From Vicinamibacterales bacterium (GTDB lineage Bacteria > Acidobacteriota > Vicinamibacteria > Vicinamibacterales > UBA8438): a stretch of 64,000 nt of DNA. Under the pieces are notes generated by a model that worked only from the letters and a program-made list of their open reading frames with translations, was not told where the DNA came from and did no database searches. Of this stretch, positions 12,296-34,604 are shown one piece after another (position 1 is the stretch's first letter; every line of letters starts with the position of its first letter). Made by a program: the position numbers and the translations under genes. The stretch is taken from assembly GCA_965206285.1 (NCBI GenBank), contig OZ242205.1, positions 4,255,887 through 4,319,886 on the forward strand, read 5' to 3'.

Positions 12296-13000
12296 CTAGC
12301 CGATGTTCCGAATCACCCAGCCGCCTTCCATGGGCATGCCGTCCTCGCCGGTCAGAATCGCCCGCTGCAGGGTGACGGTCATCGTCTCTTCCGTCTCGTT
12401 GCCGTCGAGCTCGACCCGCGCGGTGATCACCACTTCCTTCGTCACCAGCTCGCCGTTGTACTGCGTGAGATCGAGCGGGTTGTTCGGATCGAACATGCTG
12501 AGCGAAGCCTCGTTCTGCTCGGTATTCAGCTCGTCCAGGGCGGCCGCCACGGTCCTGGAGTGCACGATCGTGCGGTCGCGCCAGTCCGTCCACGCCTCCT
12601 GGACCTCGCGGTCGCGGCGGCGCACGTCGTCGCCCTCCCGCTCCGCCTCGAGCACACGGTTGATCGCGTCGAAGTTCTCGTCCTGATACGCGACCTTCTC
12701 CTCCGTGAACGCGTCCTCGGCTTCCCGCGCCTCGGCCAGGGCCTGGCTCAGCTCTTGCATCCGGAGCGGGCGGGGCTGCTCTTCCGACACGCTCTGCACG
12801 CTCACCCTGGATACCGCACCGCGCTCCTCGGTGTTCCAGGCATACATCGAGATGTTCGCGAGCGATGCCCGGTCGTTGAACCCCGTAGCCCGAAAATATG
12901 TCTGTACGAGAGTCTGTTCCGCTCCCGAGCCGCCGCAGGCGCTGATCAGCAACCCCATGCACAGCGCGAGCACCGGCACCTTCATCCTGGATCGAGCCAT
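12296..13000 (-). CDS. hypothetical lipoprotein with coiled-coil region
   Basis: AGGAGG RBS before ATG 13000; signal peptide with lipobox LISAC; GC-type codon usage. Confidence 0.75.
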   Translation of the reverse strand: MARSRMKVPVLALCMGLLISACGGSGAEQTLVQTYFRATGFNDRASLANISMYAWNTEERGAVSRVSVQSVSEEQPRPLRMQELSQALAEAREAEDAFTEEKVAYQDENFDAINRVLEAEREGDDVRRRDREVQEAWTDWRDRTIVHSRTVAAALDELNTEQNEASLSMFDPNNPLDLTQYNGELVTKEVVITARVELDGNETEETMTVTLQRAILTGEDGMPMEGGWVIRNIG

Positions 13001-13128
13001 CTCACCGCCTCCTTGCGCTGGCAGCCATGGGTGAACGGCCGAGAACGGGCCGTTCATCTTTCTTGACTGCATTGTGTCCTCGACCGAATGCACTCCTCAC
13101 CCGAACCGTCCGGCCCCGAGCCGCGCCT

Positions 13129-15639
13129 TCAACTCTCCTGATCGTCTGAAATCGCCTCGGTTCCGTTCTCTTCGCGGGTTTCGTCGTCTGCGCTCATGTC
13201 GCCCAGCCTCGCAAGCGAGACGACCTGATCCTGGTTGTCGATCCCGATCAGCCGCACCCCCTGCGTTGCCCGTCCGATGGGGCGGATGTCCGTCGTGTCC
13301 ATGCGGAGCACTTTCCCCTGCTGGGTGATGAGCATCAGCTCATCTTCGTTCTCCACATAGGCGATTCCGACGACCAAGCCGTTCCGGGCAGTTGCCTGGA
13401 TGTTAATGATACCGACTCCCCCGCGGGATTGCACGCGGTATTCGTCGATTCCCGTCCGCTTGCCGTAACCGTTCTCGGTGACCGTCAGCATGGTGCCCCC
13501 GGGACGGACGACGGTCACCGCCACGACTTCGTCGTCAGCCCGCAGTCGAACGCCCCGCACGCCCCGCGCGGTTCGCCCCATGGACCGCACATCCTGCTCG
13601 GTGAAACGGATCGCCATTCCCTGTCGGGTGCCCAGGAACACGTCACCGTGCCCATCGCTGATCTCGGCGGCAATCACCGCGTCGTCCTCGTCGACGCCGA
13701 CCGCCATGATGCCCTTCTGTCTCGGGTTGCGGAACGCGCGGAGATCCGTCTTCTTGATGATGCCCCGCCGGGTTCCGGTGAGGATGTAGCGTTCTCCCTC
13801 GGCATCGGGCCACTCGCGAACCGCCAGCAACGCGGCGATCCTCTCGTCCGGCTCCATCGAGACCAGGTTGGCGATCGATTTCCCGCGGCCGCTCGGACCG
13901 ACGTCCGGAATCGTGTGCACCTTCAGCCAGTACACCCGCCCCCGATCCGAGAAAATGAGGATGTAGGCGTGGGTCGACGCCACGAAGAGGTGCGTCAGGA
14001 AATCCCCGTCGCGGGTGCGCATCCCGAGACGGCCCTTGCCGCCGCGCCGTTGCCCCCGATACTCGGTGATCGCAGTCCGCTTGATATAGCCGGTGTTGCT
14101 CACGGTGATGGCCATGTCCTCTTCGGCGATCAGATCCTCGATGCGCAGCTCGCCCGGGTCGTCCACGATCTCCGTGCGCCGGTCGTCACCATACTTGCTC
14201 TGCACCTCCCGCAGCTCATCGACCACGATGCCCATCAACAACGTTTCACTGCCGAGAATCTCGCGAAGCCGTAGAATTTCCTTCAGCAGCCCGGCCAGCT
14301 CGTCCAGCACCTTCTGCCGCTCGAGTCCGGTCAGGCGCTGCAACTGCATGTCGAGAATGGCCTGGGCCTGAATTCGGCTCAGCTCGAACTCCTCGATCAG
14401 CCCTTCGCGCGCCTCGGCGGGGTTGCCGGCGCTGCGGATCAGCGCAATCACGGCATCGAGATGATCGAGGGCGATCTTCAGTCCCTCGAGAATGTGAGCC
14501 CGGGCCTCCGCCTTGCGCAGCTCGTGCTCCGTGCGCCGCCGGACCACGTCGTGCCGAAACGCGATGAACCGCTCGACGAGATCCAGCAGTTCGAGGACCC
14601 GCGGCCGTCCGTCGACGATGGCCAGCATGATCACGCCGAAAGTGGTCTGGAACGGGGTGTGCTTGTACAGGTTGTTGAGAACGACTTCCGGCATCTCGCC
14701 GCGCTTCAGCTCGATGACGATCCGCATGCCCTGGCGGTCCGACTCGTCGCGCAGGTCGCTGATGCCGTCGAGGGACTTGGCCCGGACCAGCTCTGCGATC
14801 TTCTCGATCAGACGGGTCTTGTTGAGCTGGTAGGGAATCTCGGTGATGACGATCGCCTGGCGTTCCCCCTTCCGGATGTCCTCGATCGCGGCCCGACCCC
14901 GTACCGTGAGGGATCCGCGGCCGGTCTGGTAGGCTGCATCGATGCCCGCATGCCCCACGATGAACCCGCCGGTCGGAAAATCCGGCCCGCTGATGCGAGC
15001 CCGCAAGCCGCGGCGCTTGTCGCCGTCGCTCTCCTCGCGGTGATCGATGATCCACACGATGCCGTCGATGACTTCCTGCAGGTTGTGCGGCGGGATATTG
15101 GTGGCCATGCCGACCGCGATCCCGGCGGAACCGTTCACGAGGAGATTCGGATACGGCGTCGGCAGAACCGTGGGCTCCTCGGTCGTCTCGTCGTAGTTGG
15201 CCACGAAGTCGACCGTCTCCTTGTCGAGATCGGCCATCAGGTCGTCCGAGATCGGCTGCAACCGGGCCTCGGTATACCGCATCGCCGCCGGCGGGTCGCC
15301 ATCGACGGAACCGAAGTTCCCCTGACCGTCGACCAGGGGATAGCGCATGTTGAACCCCTGGGCCAGCCGCACCAGGGTGTCGTAGATCGATGCGTCCCCA
15401 TGCGGATGGAAGTTCCCCATCACCTCGCCCACGATCTTGGCGCACTTCCGGTACGCCCGGTTCGAGGCCAATCCCATCAGCCGCATGCCGTACACGACGC
15501 GCCGGTGCGCCGGTTTCAGCCCGTCGCGCACGTCGGGCAGCGCACGGCCGATGATGACGCTCATGGCGTAGTCCATGTACGAGCGCCGCATTTCGTCTTC
15601 GATGTTGACTGGCAATCTGGTGTCTGAAACGTCGGCCAT
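13129..15639 (-). CDS. gyrA: DNA gyrase subunit A
   Basis: [28 protein letters not shown] and GyrA-box QRRGGKG. Confidence 0.98.
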
Positions 15640-15760
15640 GGTTGGGAAGGACCCCGGTGTGACGGTGAATCGGATCTCCGCTACCGGCGTGGCCGCCGGC
15701 CGTGGACATTCTGCGGTACGGGCGTGTCTGCGACGATTGCGGCGGCGTCAGCGGCGGCTG

Positions 15761-18304
<2,544 letters not shown>

Positions 18305-18454
18305 TCACTCGGCGGTCCACCGAATCAATCATCCGCCCCCCCACCCGCAAGCGCTGGCCTCGCGGGAGGCATCGCCGCCGCCCGACGCTGCCAGCGCGAC
18401 CTTCACGGTCGCGTTTGCAGTTTCGCTGACGCGAAACTGCCACGGGGCAGGCCC

Positions 18455-19603
18455 CTAGACCCGCATCGGCATGATCACGTACGTGTACTCGCATGCCTCG
18501 GAGGACAGGGGCGACAGCACCGCCTGGCTCACCTCGTCCTTGAACGCGAGCACGACACTGTCGGAATCGACGACGCCCAGAAAATCAAGGACGTACTGCG
18601 CGTTGAAACAGATCACCGTCTCCGCCCCCTCGTAGTCGACGGTGAGCACTTCGGTTGCTTCGCCGACTTCCGGACTGCTGGACGACACCTCGACGCCTCC
18701 GGCGGCAATCTGCAACTTGACCGCCCGTGACCGCTCGTTCGACAACAGGGCGACACGCTTTACGGTGCTCGACAGGCGGTCCCGGTCGAACTCGATGCGC
18801 TTGTCGTTGCCCTTGGGCAGAACCCGCTCGTGGGCGGGAAACTGCGCATCGATGGTCCGGGAGATGAGCTGCCGCCGGCCCACGTCGAAAAAAAGATGAT
18901 TGGCGCCCCGCTCGTAGCCCACCTCGCCCGATTCGTCCTCGCCGAGCAGGCGAGCGAGCTCCCACATCGTCTTCCTGGGCAGAATGACCCGGGCCGGATC
19001 CTCCGCATCCCCGCCGGTCCCCCCCTCCGATTCGCCCTCCGTCGGCTTGCACGTGGCCGAGGCCAGGGCGAGTCGATGGCCATCCGTGGCGACCAGGCTC
19101 ATCGACGACGCCGACAGGAGAAACAGGGCGCCGTTCAGGAAAAACCGCGTGTCCTCACCGGTGATCGCGAACTGCGTCTTGGCCACCATCTCGGCCAGCG
19201 GCGCTGCCGCGAGAGCCGCGGTGACCGTACCGCTCGCCTCCGGCATCGACGGAAAGTCCTCCCGCGGCAGGGTCTGCATCCGCGAGCTGAACCGCTCGGC
19301 CGCCACGCTCACCGATCCCGCGGCCGGTTGGGTAATCCGGATGTCGGTGTCCGGCAACGCCCGAGCGATCTCGTAGAGCTTCCGTGCCGGAAGGGTCAGC
19401 GAGCCGCCCTGAACGACGGTAGCGGCACACCGGCTGCGCAGCCCCACCTCCAGATCCGTCGCCGCGAGACGGATCTCCGATGCCCCGTCATCCGCTTCGA
19501 TCAGGACGTTTGCGAGGATGGGAATGGTGTTCTTCCGCTCGACGATGCCTTGAAGAAGTTGCAGTTCTTTGAGGAGTTCGGTCTGGCGAACATTGAATTC
19601 CAT
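18455..19603 (-). CDS. dnaN: DNA polymerase III beta sliding clamp
   Basis: TIPILANVLI, ATDLEV, ATDGHRL, C-terminal VIMPMRV. Confidence 0.97.
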   Translation of the reverse strand: MEFNVRQTELLKELQLLQGIVERKNTIPILANVLIEADDGASEIRLAATDLEVGLRSRCAATVVQGGSLTLPARKLYEIARALPDTDIRITQPAAGSVSVAAERFSSRMQTLPREDFPSMPEASGTVTAALAAAPLAEMVAKTQFAITGEDTRFFLNGALFLLSASSMSLVATDGHRLALASATCKPTEGESEGGTGGDAEDPARVILPRKTMWELARLLGEDESGEVGYERGANHLFFDVGRRQLISRTIDAQFPAHERVLPKGNDKRIEFDRDRLSSTVKRVALLSNERSRAVKLQIAAGGVEVSSSSPEVGEATEVLTVDYEGAETVICFNAQYVLDFLGVVDSDSVVLAFKDEVSQAVLSPLSSEACEYTYVIMPMRV

Positions 19604-19629
19604 CGAGGGAGTGACCTTCGGGGTTGACA

Positions 19630-19860
19630 CCGTAAACTGTAGGTATCTGTCGACGTACTGATCTCTAAACTATATCAGTAAGTACTGTTGAAAAGGGCGC
19701 TCATGTCAGGTTAAATGGTTTTATATCAATGGTTTAAGGTGTTGAAAACCCGCTGGATTCCCGGTGGGATCGGGGCTCCGCGTTCCACAGTTCGGCCTGC
19801 TTGCAGGATCTCCACGGGAGGCCGATCAACCTGTTGACGGAGTGCTGTGGAAAAAAGCCG
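19630..19860. promoter_or_regulatory. oriC core between dnaA and dnaN (AT-rich segment, IHF site, DnaA boxes)
   Basis: AT-rich 19633-19740; TGTTGAAAA at 19686 and 19740; consensus box TGTGGAAAA at 19846-19854; IHF consensus match TATCAATGGTTTA at 19724-19736. Confidence 0.8.
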
Positions 19861-19895
19861 GCCTGCGACCGGGCGACAGGCAGGGACAGGAGCTT

Positions 19896-21236
19896 TTAGT
19901 TGACCAACTTCCTGATCGACTTGACGAAGCTCTCGATGAGGGTGTTGAAATTGGCATCCTTCTTGCACTTTTCTTCGATCTTGTCGACCGCGTAGATGAC
20001 GGTCGAGTAGTGCTTGCCGAACTTCCGGCCGATCTCCGGATACGATGCCTCAGTGAGGGTTCTTGCCAGATACATCGTGATCTGACGCGGCAACACGATT
20101 GCCTGCGCATTGTTGCGGGACTTGAGGTCGCTCAGCTTGAGCGAGTAGTGGTTGGCGATGTGCTTCTGGACGAGCTCGACGGTGATCAGGGGTCTGTCGC
20201 GCTCACCGATGTTCGGGAGGACCTCCTGGGCCAACGGCAGGGAGATCTTCTGGCGCCACAGCGAGGCGCGGGCTATCAGCGTGGTGAGGGAACCCTCGAG
20301 CTCCCGGATGTTGGACTTGATTCTCTCGGCGATGTAGAGCGCCACATCGTCGTCGATCGGGACGGCGGGGGCCAGGTGCTCGGCTTTCTTCTTGAGAATC
20401 GCGATTCTGGTCTCGAGATCCGGAGGCTGAATGTCGACCGTCAGGCCCCACTCGAAGCGCGATCGGAGCCGTTCCTCGAGGAACTGGAGCTCCTGAGGTG
20501 GACAGTCGCTGCTGATGACGATCTGCTTCTGGGCGTCGTAGAGCGAGTTGAACGTGTGGAAGAACTCGATCTGCGTGCCCTCACGGCTGGCCAGAAACTG
20601 GATGTCGTCCACCAGCAGGATATCCGTGCTGCGGTACCGCGCCCGAAAGTCGATGGTCCGGTCGAAACGGATCGCGTTGATCATCTCGTTCATGAAGCGG
20701 TCGGACGAGATGTAGGTCCGCGTCGACTGCGGCGAGTGGATGTCCAGGTACTCGCCGATGGCGTGCATGAGGTGCGTTTTTCCGAGCCCGACGCCGCCGT
20801 AGAGGAAGAGCGGGTTGTAGGACCGCGCCGGGGCTTCGGCCACGGCGCGTGCGGCCGCGTGCGCGAACTGGTTCGAGGGGCCGACGACGAATTCCTCGAA
20901 GGTGTAGCGCTGGTGATGTTGCGCCGACGGACGGGGGGTGGGCTCGGCCCGATCGGATTCGGGGCGCCGGGCCGCGTCCGCCGCGGTCGGCGTGGGGTCG
21001 GTCGTCACGAGCGAGACGACCGTCTCCGGTCGACCGAGCTCGTCGGCGGCCTCCTTGATGACCCCGGCATAGTGGCGGGTCAGCCAATGCTTGAAGAGAT
21101 CGCTGGGGACGAGGACCGTGACCTCTTCGCCGTCGTTCTCGACGAACCTGGTGGGCTTGAACCACGTGTGGAAAATGTACCGGCTGACCTTGTTCTCGAC
21201 GCGCGCCAGGATTTGGTCCCAGAGGTTGCTCGACAT
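19896..21236 (-). CDS. dnaA: chromosomal replication initiator
   Basis: YNPLFLYGGVGLGKTHL, LLVDDIQF, RLRSRFEWGL, NIRELEG; alternative start at 21251. Confidence 0.98.
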   Translation of the reverse strand: MSSNLWDQILARVENKVSRYIFHTWFKPTRFVENDGEEVTVLVPSDLFKHWLTRHYAGVIKEAADELGRPETVVSLVTTDPTPTAADAARRPESDRAEPTPRPSAQHHQRYTFEEFVVGPSNQFAHAAARAVAEAPARSYNPLFLYGGVGLGKTHLMHAIGEYLDIHSPQSTRTYISSDRFMNEMINAIRFDRTIDFRARYRSTDILLVDDIQFLASREGTQIEFFHTFNSLYDAQKQIVISSDCPPQELQFLEERLRSRFEWGLTVDIQPPDLETRIAILKKKAEHLAPAVPIDDDVALYIAERIKSNIRELEGSLTTLIARASLWRQKISLPLAQEVLPNIGERDRPLITVELVQKHIANHYSLKLSDLKSRNNAQAIVLPRQITMYLARTLTEASYPEIGRKFGKHYSTVIYAVDKIEEKCKKDANFNTLIESFVKSIRKLVN

Positions 21237-21592
21237 TGGCGCCACTCGCATGGATTCGCTGTCCGGTCAGCCGGCCATGAAGCGAACGTTTCGGTTGAAC
21301 GCTTTCGGTTGTCCTGAGCCCGGTGAACTTCACCCGTGCGGACACGAACGAGCGGTCGTCGGATCGTTCGCCGCCAAGAGGGGCGCGGGTGCAACGGCCG
21401 ACCACGATACCACAGCCGGTGGCGTGTCGGAATACCCCGCTTTTAGACTCCTAGTTCGGCGAGGAACAGCGGTCCAGCCCAAACTGAGCACGCGTTGCGC
21501 AAATCGGGTCATTTCTCTCAAATATCTGAAATAAAAAGGTTTAGATCTGTATGGAGCCGGTTGCGGTTCTTGAAAAACCCGCGAAACGTATG

Positions 21593-21624
21593 TTTTCCAT
21601 ACTGTTTTCCATACCTGTGGAAAA
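21593..21624. promoter_or_regulatory. DnaA-box cluster upstream of dnaA
   Basis: TTTTCCATA at 21593-21601 and 21605-21613, TGTGGAAAA at 21616-21624, next to an AT-rich tract at 21510-21550. Confidence 0.75.
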
Positions 21625-21834
21625 CCGCTGGAATACGGAGAGAAGAACGCTTTCATCGGGGTGAGATTTGGATTGTAGCACACGCACCGCGCAGGTGTCC
21701 TCAAGCTCGAAACGGCAGGATTTCAACAACCTCCGGAAGGGCGCGCCGAGGTCTTGAGGACGCCGATTCTTGACAGACAGGCAGCGGAGCACCTAGCATA
21801 AAGGGTTCCAGCAGGAACGGAGGGTCCTGATCCG

Positions 21835-27087: not shown

Positions 27088-29013
27088 ATGCCGCCGGATC
27101 ATGACGTCATCGTCGTCGGCGCCGGCCATGCCGGCATCGAGGCGGCCCATGCGGCGGCCCGCCTGGGGTGCAACGTGGGGCTCTGCACGCTCTCGAGAGA
27201 CACCGTGGGCCAGATGCCGTGCAACCCGTCGGTCGGCGGTACCGCGAAGGGGCACCTGGTTCGTGAGATCGACGCCCTGGGCGGATTGATGGGTCAGGCG
27301 ATCGATGCCAGCGCGATTCAGTTCAAGCTGCTGAACAGGAGCCGCGGCCCGGCCGTGCAGTCCCCGCGGGCGCAAGCGGACAAGCGGCAGTACGGCGTCT
27401 GGATGCGGACTCGACTGGACCGCGAGCCGAGTGTCGACTGGATCATCGGACGAGTCGGTTCGGTGGTGGTCGAGGGCGGTCGAGCAGTCGGCATCGAGCT
27501 CGAGGACGGTACGCGTATTGGTTGCCGGACCGTGGTGGTGACCACCGGGACCTTCCTGAACGGACTTGTCCATGTTGGGCCGGAACGACATGCGGCCGGG
27601 CGAGCCGGCGAGCCGGCGTCGCGGGTTCTCGGCGAATCGCTGAAGCGGTTGGGTCTGGAGTGGGGGCGGCTGAAGACCGGCACTCCACCCCGGCTCGATC
27701 GCGCCAGCATCGACTTCGGCCGGTTCGAGGAGGAGCCGGGGGATCGCCCCCCGGTGCCGTTCTCGTTCATGACCGGCGCCCTCGATCGCAGTCAGATCTG
27801 CTGCCACATCGTTCATACGACCGCCGCGGCGCACGAGCTCATCCGCCGGAACCGGGATCGGTCACCGCTCTACAACGGGCGAATCACCGGAATCGGTCCC
27901 CGGTACTGTCCTTCTCTGGAGGACAAGGTGATGCGGTTTCCCGACCGCGAGCGTCATCAGATCTTTCTGGAGCCCGAGGGGCTCGATGTGCCGGAGATCT
28001 ACGTCAGCGGATGTTCGATGTGCCTGCCGGAGGACGTGCAGAGGGAAGTCATCGCCGCGTTGCCGGGGTTGGAAGATGCCGTGATGCTGCGTCCCGGCTA
28101 TGCGGTCGAATACGATTTCATCCAACCGACGGAACTGGCGTTGACTCTGGAGAGCCGAACAACCCCCGGACTGTTTCTGGCGGGCCAAATCAACGGTACC
28201 TCGGGATACGAGGAGGCGGCCGGACAGGGGCTGGTAGCGGGGGTGAACGCGGCGCGGCGTGCCCGTGGAGACGGAGACTGGGTGCTGAGGCGTAGCGAGT
28301 CCTACATCGGGGTGATGGTCGATGATCTGACGACCCGCGGATGTCTCGAACCGTACCGCATGTTCACGTCCCGTGCGGAGCATCGCCTGCTTCTGCGAAT
28401 CGATAATGCGGACTTGCGTCTGACACCGCTTGGTCGTGAGATCGGGTTGGTCGGCGACGAGCGGTGGGACCGCTTCTGTGGCCGGCGCGCGCGGTTCGAG
28501 CGGAACCTGGCCCGCGTACGGGCGGCGCGGGTGCGAGAGGGTACGCGCACCATCGCCGCGACCCAGGTGCTGCGGCGACCGGGCGTCACGCTCGGAACGC
28601 TGGCCGATCAGGGAGTAGTCGATCTCGAAATCGGTGTCGATGCCGCCGGCGCCGAGCGATCGAGTGTGGAGACGGCGGTGAAGTACGAAGGCTATCTGCG
28701 GAGGCAGGAAGCCACGATTGCGAGGGCGGCGCGAGACGAAGGGCGGCGTATCCCTTCCGACTTTCCGTATGGCGACGTGCCCGGCTTGTCGAACGAAGTG
28801 GCGTCGAGACTGGTTTCGGTGCAGCCGGCCACGCTTGGACAGGCTGGGCGCGTTCCCGGCGTGACGCCGGCGGCTGTCGCAGTGCTCGGGGCTTACGTCA
28901 AGCGCTGGGGCGGTCGAGGCCCGGCTTTCTCAAGACCACCAGACGGCTGTCCGCCGAGTCGAGCAGGGGATACGTCGCCTCCATCCGCAGGGGTGGCGGC
29001 ACCTCGGCGCTGA
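27088..29013 (+). CDS. mnmG: tRNA uridine-5-carboxymethylaminomethyl modification enzyme
   Basis: [54 protein letters not shown]. Confidence 0.97.
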
Positions 29014-29575
29014 CGTCTTCGTGGTCGGATCTTCGGAAGAGGAAGACGGCGCCGCCGGCCCGGACCAGCGGCTGAATCTGCTGCAACATCCGGCGCCCGA
29101 TACGAACGGCCCGCACGGTCACGATGTCGGATCTTTCGAGCTGATCTCCCCGGGTGACCAGTTCCTGGTACCTGCAGGCCTCCACGACTGTCTCCTTCAA
29201 GCGAAGTTGTCGCACGACCTCCCGAAGGAACGCGGCTTTTCTCGTTCTCGATTCCACCATCCGAAGTGTTACCGTGGGTGCCGCCAGCTTCAGGGGTACC
29301 GCCGGAGATCCCCCACCCGATCCGATGTCGGTGATGGAAGCTCCGTTCTTGGGCAGTCGTTGCGCGGCGATCAGGGGCTCGATGACGAGTCTGTCGATAC
29401 CGCGTTCGTCATCGGTCAGTGCGGTCAGATTGATGCGACGGTTCCACCGCATCAGCAGAGCAACGTAGGCAGCCAGGGCCGGCAGGAGAGCGATGTCGAC
29501 GTCTACGCGAGCTCGGGCGGCTTGCCGAGCGATACGCCCGGCGAGTTGTCGGTCCTCGATGTCGGGAATCGTCAT
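28898..29575 (-). CDS. rsmG: 16S rRNA (guanine527-N7)-methyltransferase
   Basis: [39 protein letters not shown]; convergent with and overlapping mnmG. Confidence 0.9.
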
Positions 29576-29670: not shown

Positions 29671-29686
29671 TGTTCCACGTGGAACA
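29671..29686. promoter_or_regulatory. parS centromere site
   Basis: Perfect palindrome TGTTCCACGTGGAACA. Confidence 0.93.
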
Positions 29687-29851: not shown

Positions 29852-30604
29852 TTGACCGGTGAAGATCGTCTGATTGTCGCTCTGGATGTTCCGAGTGTCG
29901 AGCGCGCGCGCGCTATTGTCGACGAATTGGCGAACGTCCGGGCCTACAAGATAGGTTGGCGGCTCCTCATGGCCGGGCTGCGGGCTCGCGGCCTCGCGGA
30001 GCTGTGGGAGAAGATTGCGGGCGAAGGTAAGCGGATCTTCGTCGATCTGAAGGTGCCGGACATCGGCAACACGGTGGCGGATGTGGTTCGCGACTTGCGC
30101 GACGATCCGAGCATCCTTTTCTTGACCCTGCACCAGAACATGCCATTGCGGGACATCGCGATGGCGCGTGACGCCAAAGCCGGGAGCCGATGGCCGGCCC
30201 TCCTCGCCGTACCGTACGTGTCCAGCCTGGATGCCGACGATTTTTCGCGGATTGCACCTGCGGAGGCAGCGCGAGGCGTCACGTTGGACGAGTGGATTGT
30301 CGCGAGAACCCGAGGCGCGCTCGATCATGGCTGTGACGGCGTGATCGCATCCGGCGAGGCCATTCGGCTCTGCCGGGAGACATGGCCCAGGGAGACGGGT
30401 GTAGTGATCGTCAGCCCGGGGATTCGGTTGGCCGGGGCAACCCGGGATGACCACAGGCGCTCGACCACGCCGGCGCAGGCCATTCGCTGGGGATCGGACT
30501 ACCTCGTCGTGGGACGGCCGGTCTTGAATGCGCCCGATCGGGGAAAAGCGGCACAAGCGATTATCGATGAAATCGATGGCGCGGTCGCCGAGTCGTCGGA
30601 GTGA
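29852..30604 (+). CDS. pyrF: orotidine-5'-phosphate decarboxylase
   Basis: RLIVALD, DLKVPDIGNT (DxKxxD), VSPGIR, DYLVVGRP. Confidence 0.9.
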   Translation: MTGEDRLIVALDVPSVERARAIVDELANVRAYKIGWRLLMAGLRARGLAELWEKIAGEGKRIFVDLKVPDIGNTVADVVRDLRDDPSILFLTLHQNMPLRDIAMARDAKAGSRWPALLAVPYVSSLDADDFSRIAPAEAARGVTLDEWIVARTRGALDHGCDGVIASGEAIRLCRETWPRETGVVIVSPGIRLAGATRDDHRRSTTPAQAIRWGSDYLVVGRPVLNAPDRGKAAQAIIDEIDGAVAESSE

Positions 30605-31159
30605 ATGCCGTTTGTCCGACCGGCGCCGTTCGCCTTTGTGGAGCTGTCCAGGGGCGCGCGTCCTGGCGGTTCCTTGGTACAGCGTCACTGCCCGCCTGGA
30701 AGCGGTGGCCTGCTTTGGGCGTCCTGAGCGGAGACCCCGAGTTCTGCCACGGAGACGTCCCATGGGTGTCAAGCGACATCCTGGACTTCGACGCCTGGCC
30801 TGGAGCAAGAACCCACCCCTGGATAGCCTCGCTTTCGGGACGGCGACGTATTGGACAACGCATGACTTCGTGCTTTCCCCGGCGGTTGTGGAGAGGTGCA
30901 GCGCCGTCGGACAAGGGCGAGGTACGGCGGGTGGACGGAGCCGTAGCGATGCTCGTTCCGACGAGGAGATTCTGGGCGCGCGGTCGTCTTTTTGTTCGAG
31001 ACCTGGCGCACCGGTTCGACGGCGGCCGTGGGGCGTCACCTTCGGAACAGCAGACCGCAAGGCCGCAGCGGCTCCTCACCGCCTCCCGCGCAGCAACGCT
31101 CGTGTCCGGTGAGCAGGGCGGTGGCCGTGTGCCCGGCAGGTCATCGGTTGCTGTGAAAC

Positions 31160-31353
31160 GCTACAAGGTTTCCGGCGAGGTGCCCGGCATGCGCGTCTCG
31201 ATCGTCAATGGTATCCGGATAGCCGTCGTTCTATTGTACCGAGTTGACCTTCAAGCCCGACGCCGAGATATTCGAGACGGTGGACTACAGCTTCGACACG
31301 GTGGCCCCACCGTCCCGTGGCGGCGGGTGGTGCCGGTTGACTTCGAGGTCGCT
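31160..31353. repeat. mosaic of four fragments copied from the resident gyrB
   Basis: 31160-31210 ~ rc of 17824-17874 (43/51); 31210-31242 ~ 17402-17434 (28/33); 31245-31299 = rc of 17643-17697 (55/55); 31319-31353 ~ 17710-17743. Confidence 0.9.
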
Positions 31354-31391
31354 CGGACCCGGTCGTGCACCGGCGCGGCGCGGAGGAACAA

Positions 31392-31651
31392 CTAAGGGCC
31401 TCGAGCGCCGCGTCGTCCAACTCCTGCGGCAACGGCAGCCCAGCCCTTGTTGAGCCGTCCTCTGCAGACAGCGATACCGTTGCCCATGCCAATGGCGCAG
31501 GCCTGGGCTATCGCCCGGTGGGGACAAAATCCCAGCTCGTGCTTGAGCCGAAGAACCTCGCGAATCTTCCTCGTCAGCAGCCTCCGCGGCGGCATCGCCT
31601 CGCCCTCCCTTCGGAAGGGTGAAGCCCTGCCGGGATCGTCCGGAATGCGCA
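31392..31651 (-). mobile_element. IS21-family remnant: left end plus degraded istA 5' fragment
   Basis: End TGCGCATTCCGGACGATCC at 31651; MPPRRLLTRKIREVLRLKHELG...HRAIAQACAIG [frameshift] ...LPLPQELDDAALEAL* from ATG 31595. Confidence 0.8.
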
Positions 31652-32227
31652 CCTGTCGAGGATGCGCCGTCCGTTGACACCGAAGATGTCCGACAAGATG
31701 CCGCCGATCCGCAGACCGTCGTGGTCGAGCGTTTGTGGACCCGGTTGCGATTCCGGCTGCGCTCGGCGACGAGCTTACGGCGGTAGCGGGTCAACTGCCG
31801 CTATTGGCGGAAGCGCCGCGGCAGAACGTAGCTCGGCTGGGCGAGGCCGAACTGGCAGATGCGAGGCAGCCACAGGTTGTCGTTGACGTCGGTCTTCTTG
31901 CCGCGAATTTGCTTGACGTGCTGGGCATGGAACAGTGCGGCGTAGATGACGGCGTCCTCCAACGCCTCGAACGGAGCCTTTCCAGTAGACCCCGATGCCC
32001 TCCATCGCGGCGGCGGTGACGCCATGCGCCCGCAGCCAGTCGGTCATTGGCCGCATCCTGGCCGGCAGCGCGCGGACCTCCTTTCGGGACGGCGTGCGCC
32101 ATGCCGCTGCCGGCTTCGTACAGACGGACGGCGGCGGGGCTGCACATCGAGGCCGGCGGCCCCGGGGTTCGACTACCTGCAGGTTGTCGACGGACAGCGA
32201 TTCGCCGTGGACCGTGTGGAACGGCAT
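31652..32227 (-). pseudogene. IS110-family transposase N-terminal remnant, truncated by the IS21 end
   Basis: Across frameshifts: AGLDV, AMEGIGVYWK, HVKQIRGKKTDVND, QLTRYRRKLVAERSRNRNRVHK, LSDIFGVNGRRILD; AAGGAGG RBS before ATG 32227. Confidence 0.85.
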
Positions 32228-32769
32228 CGGATACCCTCCTTGCCGGCGGGATCGGGAGGGCGCGGTCGGTGCGGGAAAACACCCGCCGTCAAGGCGGAGT
32301 TTGATTTGCGGCTCGTTCACGGCGGGCGGCTGCGGCTCGATACCGGGCGCGACAGCGTCAGCTTTTGCAACGGGGAGGGAGTTGCCGGCGCCCCGATCGA
32401 AATTGCGAGGACCGGTCCCGCTTTCGCCCCCTGAGGATGCCACGGCGCCGCCTTCGCCGCTCAACGTCGCGGGGCAGGCAACAGGGAGTTGCCAACTACA
32501 CCCAAGCGCAGCCCGGTAGGTCTACCGGTTGGCGCGACGACCTCTCTGGACTGCGGGACTTTCGGGCGACCGTTGACCCGAGACGCTGCCGGAGCTGTTG
32601 ACCGAGATCGACTTGGCCCAGACCCTGGGTCCGGGTCGGCGCGTGGAGGGATTGGCGGCGAACATCCCTCCGTGCCGCCCGGTTTTCTCGTGGCGGGCGT
32701 CACGTTCGTGCCCCATCGTGACAGGGTGGGTGGTCTTCCCGCCAGCCCTCGCTCAGCAGCCGGTGGAGG

Positions 32770-33474
32770 AGTCAGCAAGGGACAGATACAACCTGGCCGG
32801 TTCCCGTTCATCGAGGGTCTCGACAGCAGTGACTTCTCGGCTACCCGCCGTCGGTCGGGGAAAGAGATGCAGAAGCCGAGCCTCTGCCACATCGTCCAGC
32901 ACGGGGAGAGCTGGTCATACCGGGGCCGCGGTCGGTCCTGGGCTCAAGGCCAGCGGGCACGTCCGGCGGGTGCTCGTCGCGGTCGGCGAGGGCCGCCGCC
33001 ACGGCCGCGACGACTGCGCATGGAAGGAGGTCGGGTATCGGTCGATGGACCGGCACGCGCCCGACGCAGTTCTTCGAGCGCGTCAGCCGGCGCTGGAGCA
33101 CGGTGGATGATCCTGACCGGCAACCAGAGCTTCGGGAGCAGGGGCGACGACTTCCGAGACCGGGCGATGGCCAGCGCCATCCGCGACCGGGTTGTGCATC
33201 GCGCGGTCGCGATCGAGCATCCGGGTGGTTCGTATCGGTTGAAGAACGGGCCTCATGTCCGGGGTGGTCAAGCCGACAACGACGCGAAACGTGAGCGAAG
33301 GGAGGCCCGTGGGTGCGACTTGTCGCCATGGCCGCGCGCCCACCACGACTTGGACAGGGGACAAGAGACGGCCCGCCTTCAGCAACCGCCATCGTTCCAT
33401 CGATTGGATCAACCAGGGTGGGGGAATCCTCGATGACCCACAACTGGGAGGAGTCTCTGAATGACCGTTGAACA
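32770..33474 (+). pseudogene. IS21-family istB remnant with right end
   Basis: GRFPFIEGLD...DFS and MILTGNQSFGSRGDDFRDRAMASAIRDRVVHRA...GGSYRLK; IS21-like end GGGGAATCCTCGATGACC...GAATGACCGTTGAACA at 33421-33474. Confidence 0.78.
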
Positions 33475-33593
33475 AACATCTGGGGTTCGTGCTCGAGCGG
33501 TTACCCCGTAACTCCTGACGGGATGCTGCAAGGCCCCCTCTGGTCGCCCTGACGCTCGCGGTCGTTCTGGTCGGACGGGTGGTGGTGCCTCGA

Positions 33594-33609
33594 TGTTTCA
33601 CGTGGAACA
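33594..33609. promoter_or_regulatory. parS centromere site
   Basis: TGTTTCACGTGGAACA, ~200 bp upstream of parA. Confidence 0.92.
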
Positions 33610-33803
33610 TGAGCGACTGAACTGTCTTCCTCCAACTCGAGCGGGTAACAGAACCCTCGACACATTACCGGGCGAAGTGTCCGAGTCGGGTGCACGTCAG
33701 ATTCCCGTGTCTTGTTCCAACCCATGCATCGGCGTTACCATTCGGATAGACATATTTGCAGGCGCTTGTTAAGGCATTCAACAGATTTTGGTTCCGGTTG
33801 TCC

Positions 33804-34604
33804 ATGGGCAGGATTATCGCAATCGCCAATCAGAAGGGCGGCGTCGGCAAGACCACCACGGCCATCAATCTGGCGGCATCTCTGGCGATGGGCGAGCAGA
33901 AGGTGCTCCTCGTCGATCTCGATCCCCAGGCGAATCTCACGAGTGGACTCGGGCTCAGGGCGCACGTCGCCGGCCGTAGCATCTACCGGGCGCTGACATC
34001 GGAAATCGTTGCCCCGGAGGAGCTCGAGCTCGACACGCCGGTCACCGGCCTGCGGCTGATGCCGACCGATCACCATCTGACCGGCGCCGAGGTGGAGCTG
34101 GTGGGGCTGCCCCGGCGCGAGAGTCGATTGCGCCCGTTGCTGCGGGCGGCCGTAGAGCGGCACGACTATATCTTCATCGACACGCCCCCGTCTCTGGGGC
34201 TGCTGACTCTGAACGCTCTCGTGGCGGCGCATTCGGTTCTGATACCGCTCAACTGCGAGTACTTCGCGCTCGAGGGGATGACCGAGCTGATGGCGACGAT
34301 GAGCCGCGTGCAGGCCGGATTGAATCCGGAACTCAAGATCGAAGGCGTCCTGTTGACGATGTCGGACTCGCGGACGAGGTTGGGCCAGCAGGTAGCCGGC
34401 GATGTACGGGCGCATTTCAGGGAGAAGGTGTACCGGACGGTCATTCCCCGCAACGTGCGGCTGGGAGAGGCGCCGAGCCACGGTCTGCCGGCAATTCTCT
34501 ACGACGTCCGGTCGACGGGGGCTGAAGCGTACCTGGCCCTGGCGAACGAGATGCTGGGGTCCGAGCGCGTGACGGTCGGCCGCGGTTTCCCCGGGGCCGT
34601 CTAG
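33804..34604 (+). CDS. parA: chromosome partitioning ATPase ParA/Soj
   Basis: [39 protein letters not shown]. Confidence 0.96.

Follow-up and report, generated by a model that had tools for sequence, protein, structure and literature searches.

A scrambled copy of gyrB, made of four short pieces in alternating orientation, lies between pyrF and parA in the window (the whole stretch of DNA analysed, 64,000 nt). Our best explanation, which we believe and doubt in about equal measure, is that this mosaic belongs to a class of 30-140-nt inserts with donors within ~8 kb of oriC, and that it would be made of scraps, left by replication initiation that stalled or was repeated, which Ku-LigD joined into a chromosome break. 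Since the mosaic is one of a lineage-wide class with donors at oriC, gyrB and the neighbouring IS ends are not special. Its value is that of a marker of an origin-biased insertion process in this lineage, unnoticed before.

Structure and location of the mosaic

The four gyrB pieces in alternating orientation that a sequence-only reading had described are all present (Table 1). However, pieces B and C are longer than it had claimed, and the joints, B/C included, show imperfect overlaps of ~3-8 nt. The donors of B and C begin at neighbouring bases (17703/17704), and at most 2 nt of donor are reused among the four pieces. When the mosaic is searched against the whole 7.07-Mb host genome (G000), a check proposed in the same reading, pieces B, A and C are significant alone (E-values of 2e-23, 1e-7 and 2e-4), whereas D, with an E-value of 0.13 genome-wide and 6e-5 against gyrB alone, is significant only in context. 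The replacement of the GGLHGVG motif by GEVPGMR and of a Trp codon by a stop, both reported earlier, are confirmed. As also stated earlier, there are no CRISPR-like repeats: direct repeats between the pieces were not found. A CRISPR array with self-spacers was ruled out on this ground, together with the piece lengths (33-77 nt) and a search of the mosaic against Rfam, which gave no match. The GyrB protein of the window is 65-71% identical to Vicinamibacterales/Acidobacteriota proteins, which form the top group among the 80 loci listed, so that the host probably belongs there.

Table 1 Features of the mosaic, its surroundings and its donor region (window positions; G000, host genome; G033, congener)
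Feature	Position	Strand	Description	Match
Donor hot zone	12700-21300	-	Gene after gyrA, gyrA, gyrB, dnaN, dnaA; inserts across the genus
Donor gene gyrB	15761-18289	-	Single gene	Pfam
Donor stretch, gyrB ATPase region	17402-17874	-	~1.8-2.3 kb from oriC
Predicted oriC, between dnaN and dnaA	19630-19896		AT-rich, three DnaA-box-like matches
Second DnaA-box-like cluster	21590-21625		Upstream of dnaA; bipartite origin possible
pyrF	29852-30604	+	Left border of the 3-kb insertion
Left flank	30605-31159		Only in G000 and G033	92%
Piece A	31160-31210	+	gyrB sense copy, donor 17874-17824	43/51
Piece D	31210-31242	+	gyrB antisense copy, donor 17402-17434	28/33
Piece B	31238-31314	+	gyrB sense copy, donor 17704-17629	71/77, exact over 31245-31299 (55 nt)
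Weak sigma-70-like match inside B	31244-31272	+	Predicted; 1 found vs shuffle mean 0.0	9/12
Piece C	31312-31353	+	gyrB antisense copy, donor 17703-17743	36/42, exact over 31319-31336
istA 5' remnant, putative IS21 type	31354-31625	-	Residues 1-73 of a 549-aa rve/HTH transposase	47%
IS110 transposase remnant	31651-32037	-	Decayed
istB (IS21 helper) remnant	33101-33247	+
parA	33756-34604	+	Right border of the insertion

In most of the congeners fetched for this site, pyrF and parA lie within a few hundred nt of each other; without an insertion, the spacing is about 160-280 nt. The mosaic does lie next to IS ends, as had been claimed: the istA remnant ends exactly where piece C does, and the two are fused at 31354, at the truncated 5' end of the transposase gene. 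A donor of the left flank (30605-31159) was searched for and none was found.

Insertions recur between pyrF and parA, a hot spot at which five lineages have different 3-7-kb debris inserts (30605-33560; L011-L014). Those of G017, G006, G012 and G010 consist of mobile-element debris unrelated to the mosaic, and no origin-gene pieces were found in them; the G006 insert includes two interrupted IS-like blocks. Two palindromes that we take to be parS-like (29672-29685 and 33595-33608) bracket pyrF and the 3-kb insertion, upstream of parA-parB. Nearby, gidB (rsmG, 28898-29575) lies on the strand opposite to gidA in the genus, and in the same orientation in G014 (L027).

Authenticity and age

The mosaic is confirmed as real and not an assembly artefact. 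Logan contigs of runs X1, X3 and X6, from three studies (one possibly of the source sample), reproduce 31018-31271 and 31270-31456 with 0 differences. Among the contigs listed, none covers the whole mosaic, so that coverage comes as two adjoining pieces; at the D/B joint, their right side spans only 26-29 letters, under the 31-letter rule. This joint is also present in G033, an independent assembly whose gyrB is 97.6% identical. G033 shares the insertion but has lost the greater part of A and D: only the first 9 nt of A remain, and the last 7 nt of D, in the donor state. In run X9, from a fourth study, a deletion allele skips 31169-31239. The spanning-read check that had been proposed against a chimera thus gave a mixed outcome, with no single piece across the mosaic but with unchanged contigs from three studies, plus G033. 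An assembly or amplification chimera could be argued from the lack of one contig across the whole mosaic; the identical contigs, the deletion allele and the diverged G033 copy largely refute it and leave it next to no probability.

Piece C retains states common to the G017 gyrB, and the copy is therefore older than the G000/G033 split. The best gyrB matches of the mosaic are in G000, G033, G017 and G006, i.e. in the host's own lineage.

Origin-derived inserts across the genus

A screen of related genomes for similar mosaics, also suggested in the sequence-only reading, found a whole class of such inserts in congeners. Queries of 801 nt were searched in 22 congeneric genomes (E<=1e-5) and orphan matches only were retained; tallies were made by hand, excluding orthologues, parE/parC- and recG-like paralogues, recurring motifs and one foreign contig. 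Among the best 24 candidates per genome, the gyrB 5' query gave 17 orphan matches in 11 genomes, at 14 independent loci, the gyrA 5' query 13 at 6 loci, the dnaA query 10 in 7 genomes, the gyrB 3' query 4 and yidC 3; far controls, conserved at least equally, gave 0-1 (atpD), 0 (mfd) and 0 (rpoC). Counted on loci, the donor bias corresponds to a binomial p of ~7e-7 (computed with 13 and not 14 gyrB loci), a value that overstates the bias because kin genomes are not independent. As dnaA and dnaN are also donors, a cause specific to the gyrase genes was dropped.

With longer queries in five genomes, at least ~28 pieces among the matches listed come from 12.7-21.3 kb of the window, 3 from 2.3-12.3 kb and, again among the matches listed, 1-2 from 21.9-29 kb, with repeats crowding G012. 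Two more dnaN fragments lie elsewhere in G000. The hot zone surrounds oriC, because the genome-wide GC-skew minimum (window position 19,497) and DnaA-box-like sites (19686-19846 and 21593-21616, matched to what we take to be the DnaA-box consensus) fall there. It is lopsided, leaning towards gyrAB; compared with gyrA, yidC (3) and mnmE/gidA (0-1) are weak donors at similar distance. The far or flank regions examined number just four, so that other hot zones may exist. At >=50 bits, the intergenic sequence of G000 contains 176 gene fragments vs 6 in a reversed control, and their named donors are mostly mobile or accessory genes; as these fragments are mostly not origin-derived, the origin bias is demonstrated only among the conserved genes tested.

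The fetched gyrB-type inserts lie mostly at unrelated sites, between flanks conserved in G000. Origin-region pieces were found at 49 of the 50 fetched loci and two or more at 11, figures that describe the class and not its frequency because the loci were chosen for matching; L181 gave no piece against the origin regions, and L162 none against G000. The inserts are single- or multi-piece and occur in both orientations, and most of those in relatives have no IS adjoining. The 63 pieces have a median length of 59 nt (range 30-140 nt) and a median identity of 91% to the host's own gene.

Two matches were dropped from the counts. L161 matched a parE-like paralogue, and contig G009:C105 (L030) is a full-length foreign gyrB/dnaA region; its gyrB is ~70% identical to the one native to the genome, a dnaA-like match lies upstream, and the region probably stems from contamination of the bin or forms a second origin block. 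The output of a self-scan for inverted mosaics (424 non-collinear clusters) was left out of the class, being for the most part repeats or accessory genes in eroded form, an MmeI-like gene among them.

At some loci, roughly 6-8 of 30 as judged by eye, the insert is bordered by REP-like repeats, and some origin fragments are located within such repeats; a Y1/RAYT transposase, sought because of these flanks, gave no PF01797 match. REP-like families have up to ~290 matches (G000:C1 705330-705520, 6296330-6296650 and 5321770-5322000; window ~18370-18470). Captured gyrA pieces were later tandem-duplicated at L151:491-866 (G009), L152:1483-1656 (G016) and L153:1496-1677 (G018); in G009, one 33-nt end of the piece (L151) occurs in up to four copies.

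Other rearrangements were observed. An MmeI-like restriction-modification gene (L209:7897-10836, L222, L223), adjoined by a predicted pPIWI-associated nuclease gene, exists in several eroded copies in which internal parts are deleted and pieces inverted. A duplicated block in G000 (C1 1181000-1187700 vs 1257900-1262000) contains precise internal inversions of 318 nt and 44 nt with 1-5-nt junction overlaps. The rpoC genes of G001, G005, G007 and G008 are longer by 180-390 nt at one position (vs L141:1890-1930), and two divergent atpD copies per assembly are found in G032 (C165 and C213) and G013 (C321 and C167), possibly mixed bins.

Inserts outside the genus

In G021, a member of another family, all five pieces found outside the origin with its own 20-kb origin region as query derive from dnaA-dnaN-gyrB, at two loci. 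Four of them form one +/-/+/- mosaic of the dnaA region, 95-100% identical, with 1-nt fillers and a 2-nt overlap. Judged by its sequence, this mosaic is a young twin of the window's gyrB mosaic. Searches of G026, G027 and G028 with their own gyrB regions returned only paralogues or a repeat, and a search of low sensitivity in six further relatives of G027 found no fragments.

Junctions and proposed capture of origin fragments

Junctions were scored by eye. In L145, the youngest mosaic, two joints carry 1-nt fillers and one a 2-nt overlap; L156 has a 2-nt overlap, and L167 a short filler and a 2-3-nt overlap. L146 is a 73-nt insertion whose target was neither lost nor duplicated. These four loci fit junctions with a 0-3-nt overlap or a short filler; L174, with a 16-nt imperfect overlap, and L166, with an overlap of ~9 nt, do not. 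L149 lies within a repeat and shares a few end bases. Extended microhomology between donor end and target is absent at L146, not evident at L169 and partial at L149 and L035. The joints of the window's mosaic are too decayed to score, and there is no empty site for it.

In G000, Ku is adjacent to LigD, which comprises the ligase and Prim-Pol parts. According to PMC6379672, fragments captured by NHEJ can lie in either orientation or follow one another in tandem, with 1-nt additions at blunt ends; according to PMC5053440, fork rear-ending after over-initiation frees double-strand ends. From the short fillers and overlaps, the clean insertion at L146, the presence of Ku/LigD and these two reports, we infer end-joined origin scraps. 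Over-initiation or fork collapse near oriC would make fragments, a nuclease would chop them, and Ku-LigD would ligate them into chromosome breaks. On the other side, no oriC fragment was seen in free form. The break at the mosaic may be the one that truncated the IS21 copy. A Ku match was found in 16 of the 22 congeners; the Ku search gave no match in G009, G018, G032 and G033, all of which bear fragments, and Ku is present in G026, G027 and G028, where fragments were not found. Ku is thus not sufficient for fragments, and its presence does not track them across genomes.

The sequence-only reading had proposed serial template switching or break capture near IS ends. Break capture fits best and template switching is its rival, unlikely but deserving attention. 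Here, origin-proximal nascent single strands would be copied or annealed at microhomologies, in an SPDIR-like manner, without Ku-LigD. The overlaps at L174 and L166, the imperfect joints of the mosaic, the common donor point at which B and C begin and the few end bases shared at the repeat of L149 are consistent with such a process; so is the concentration of SPDIR templates around a plasmid oriV, reported in bioRxiv 10.1101/2024.07.02.601687. Against it, the youngest mosaic has two 1-nt fillers and a single 2-nt overlap, L146 is a clean insertion with no patch replaced, and the four pieces of the mosaic share at most 2 nt of donor.

Another question is whose origin supplied the pieces. For 9 of the 63, another congener matches better than the host by at least 15 bits. 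L146 in G017 matches G000/G033 at 68/72 positions vs 61/72 for its own gene, the G003 match of L163 in G031 far exceeds that of its own dnaA, L180 in G004 matches G011, and piece 1 of L156 matches the G000 clade at 34/34 vs 31/34 for its own gene. Such pieces, unpredicted by purely internal capture, suggest either that the donors were foreign or that alleles were replaced later. They are what would be expected if the fragments came mainly from other cells, with congener oriC DNA (self-replicating oriC circles, or particle export biased to the origin) entering, persisting or being over-represented, and then chopped and captured. We consider this rather improbable: the host match is best or equal for L165 (139/140), L169, L145 and the window's mosaic, later allele replacement in the host gene gives the same pattern, and a close carrier of the dnaA-gyrB block was found in none of the plasmids, viral contigs and metagenome contigs searched. 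Returning to end-joining capture, the broader proposal that the origin sheds fragments and that those of the own chromosome and of neighbouring species are the default patch material for chromosome breaks is one we regard as tentative, a little short of an even chance.

High transcription is expected of atpD and rpoC, which yielded 0-1 and 0 fragments, respectively; a cause driven by expression was ruled out on these counts. They also weigh against a reverse transcriptase copying the dnaA-dnaN-gyrB-gyrA transcript with template jumps, as do the uvrD and yidC pieces, which derive from the other strand, and the lack of a target duplication at L146. The six RVT_1 matches in G000 and the lopsidedness of the hot zone towards the dnaA-dnaN-gyrB-gyrA cluster would suit such an enzyme, but its involvement is highly improbable. 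Target-primed retro-insertion was ruled out, since L146 has no duplication and the atpD and rpoC counts do not follow the transcript abundance expected.

Decay and possible function

In A and D, 9 of 13 mismatches fall at codon positions 1-2, and mismatches of the mosaic to its donor affect all four bases. The mismatch pattern confirms that the mosaic decays like non-coding DNA, ignoring the reading frame. Frame-blind changes and best matches within the host lineage agree with the neutrally decaying self-copy that had been proposed. A foreign gyrB/parE remnant was ruled out by divergence without synonymous bias and by the best match inside the lineage, and a variable region of a diversity-generating retroelement by mismatches that are not confined to adenines.

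Between G000 and G033, 36/550 positions differ in the left flank, 1/55 in the B core and 5/53 in the rest of B and C. The 55-nt exact run of B is improbable under uniform decay (p 0.001-0.009), for which early gene conversion from gyrB is a possible cause. Alternatively, selection would maintain the mosaic, or B alone, because it acts as a promoter or yields antisense RNA directed at gyrB or IS21. The exact run and the single difference in the B core would be in keeping with selection, as would the sigma-70-like match, whose -35 T is common to both mosaics (G000 and G033). Yet A and D are gone from G033 and run X9, the B of G033 does not follow three changes in its own gyrB, 1/55 vs ~6.5% is a weak contrast, Rfam gave no match, and the mosaic is absent from the 17 other congeners examined at the site. 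We hold selection to be very unlikely. The RNA antisense to gyrB suggested from the sequence is not supported and such a role is unlikely, as little of A and D survives in G033, whose B ignores the changes of its own gyrB. The mosaic itself is most likely a repair scar without function.

Significance and comparison with known systems

Dozens of natural cases of NHEJ-type capture, with a sharp positional donor bias, appear to be present in these genomes. If so, break repair, failure of replication initiation and short-fragment gene flow between congeners would become countable from genome sequence alone. If, moreover, origin fragments are the default patch material, each oriC-derived insert would be the relic of one mended break, and together they would map the reach of aborted replication bubbles in an uncultured bacterium. 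A practical consequence for this group is that pipelines that look for marker genes or for oriC can be led astray by stray pieces of gyrB, gyrA and dnaA. In our search of mostly non-subscription literature, natural inserts derived from oriC were not reported for any bacterial genome.

At eukaryotic breaks, templated insertions or filler DNA likewise consist of several short pieces of one locus in mixed orientation, with enzymes that differ from those considered here. A close bacterial likeness is capture by Ku/LigD NHEJ in Sinorhizobium meliloti (PMC6379672), which is non-homologous, occurs in either orientation and in tandem, and leaves small changes at the ends. That system uses a supplied cassette and an induced break, whereas the inserts described here are natural, 30-140 nt long, often multi-piece, fixed in genomes and derived from the oriC region, with a putative role for the enzymes. 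According to the same paper, mobile DNA fragments might be integrated by NHEJ within a bacterial species, a possibility that its authors could not dismiss but that had not been described. Fork rear-ending (PMC5053440) offers a route to double-strand ends near the origin; as far as the accessible text goes, it concerns breakage and repeat-mediated rearrangement and not ectopic capture of short origin pieces.

SPDIR in Acinetobacter baylyi (10.1101/2023.11.22.568220, 10.1101/2024.07.02.601687) resembles the present class in that ectopic genomic or foreign segments of up to ~100 bp are inserted, a size that suits our 63 pieces (median 59 nt, range 30-140 nt), and in that donors are also biased to a replication landmark. 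As described there, SPDIR needs extended microhomology, unlike our cleanest cases, which are without it, and its chromosomal donors cluster at the terminus, those on an IncQ plasmid at oriV, whereas here the donors cluster at oriC.
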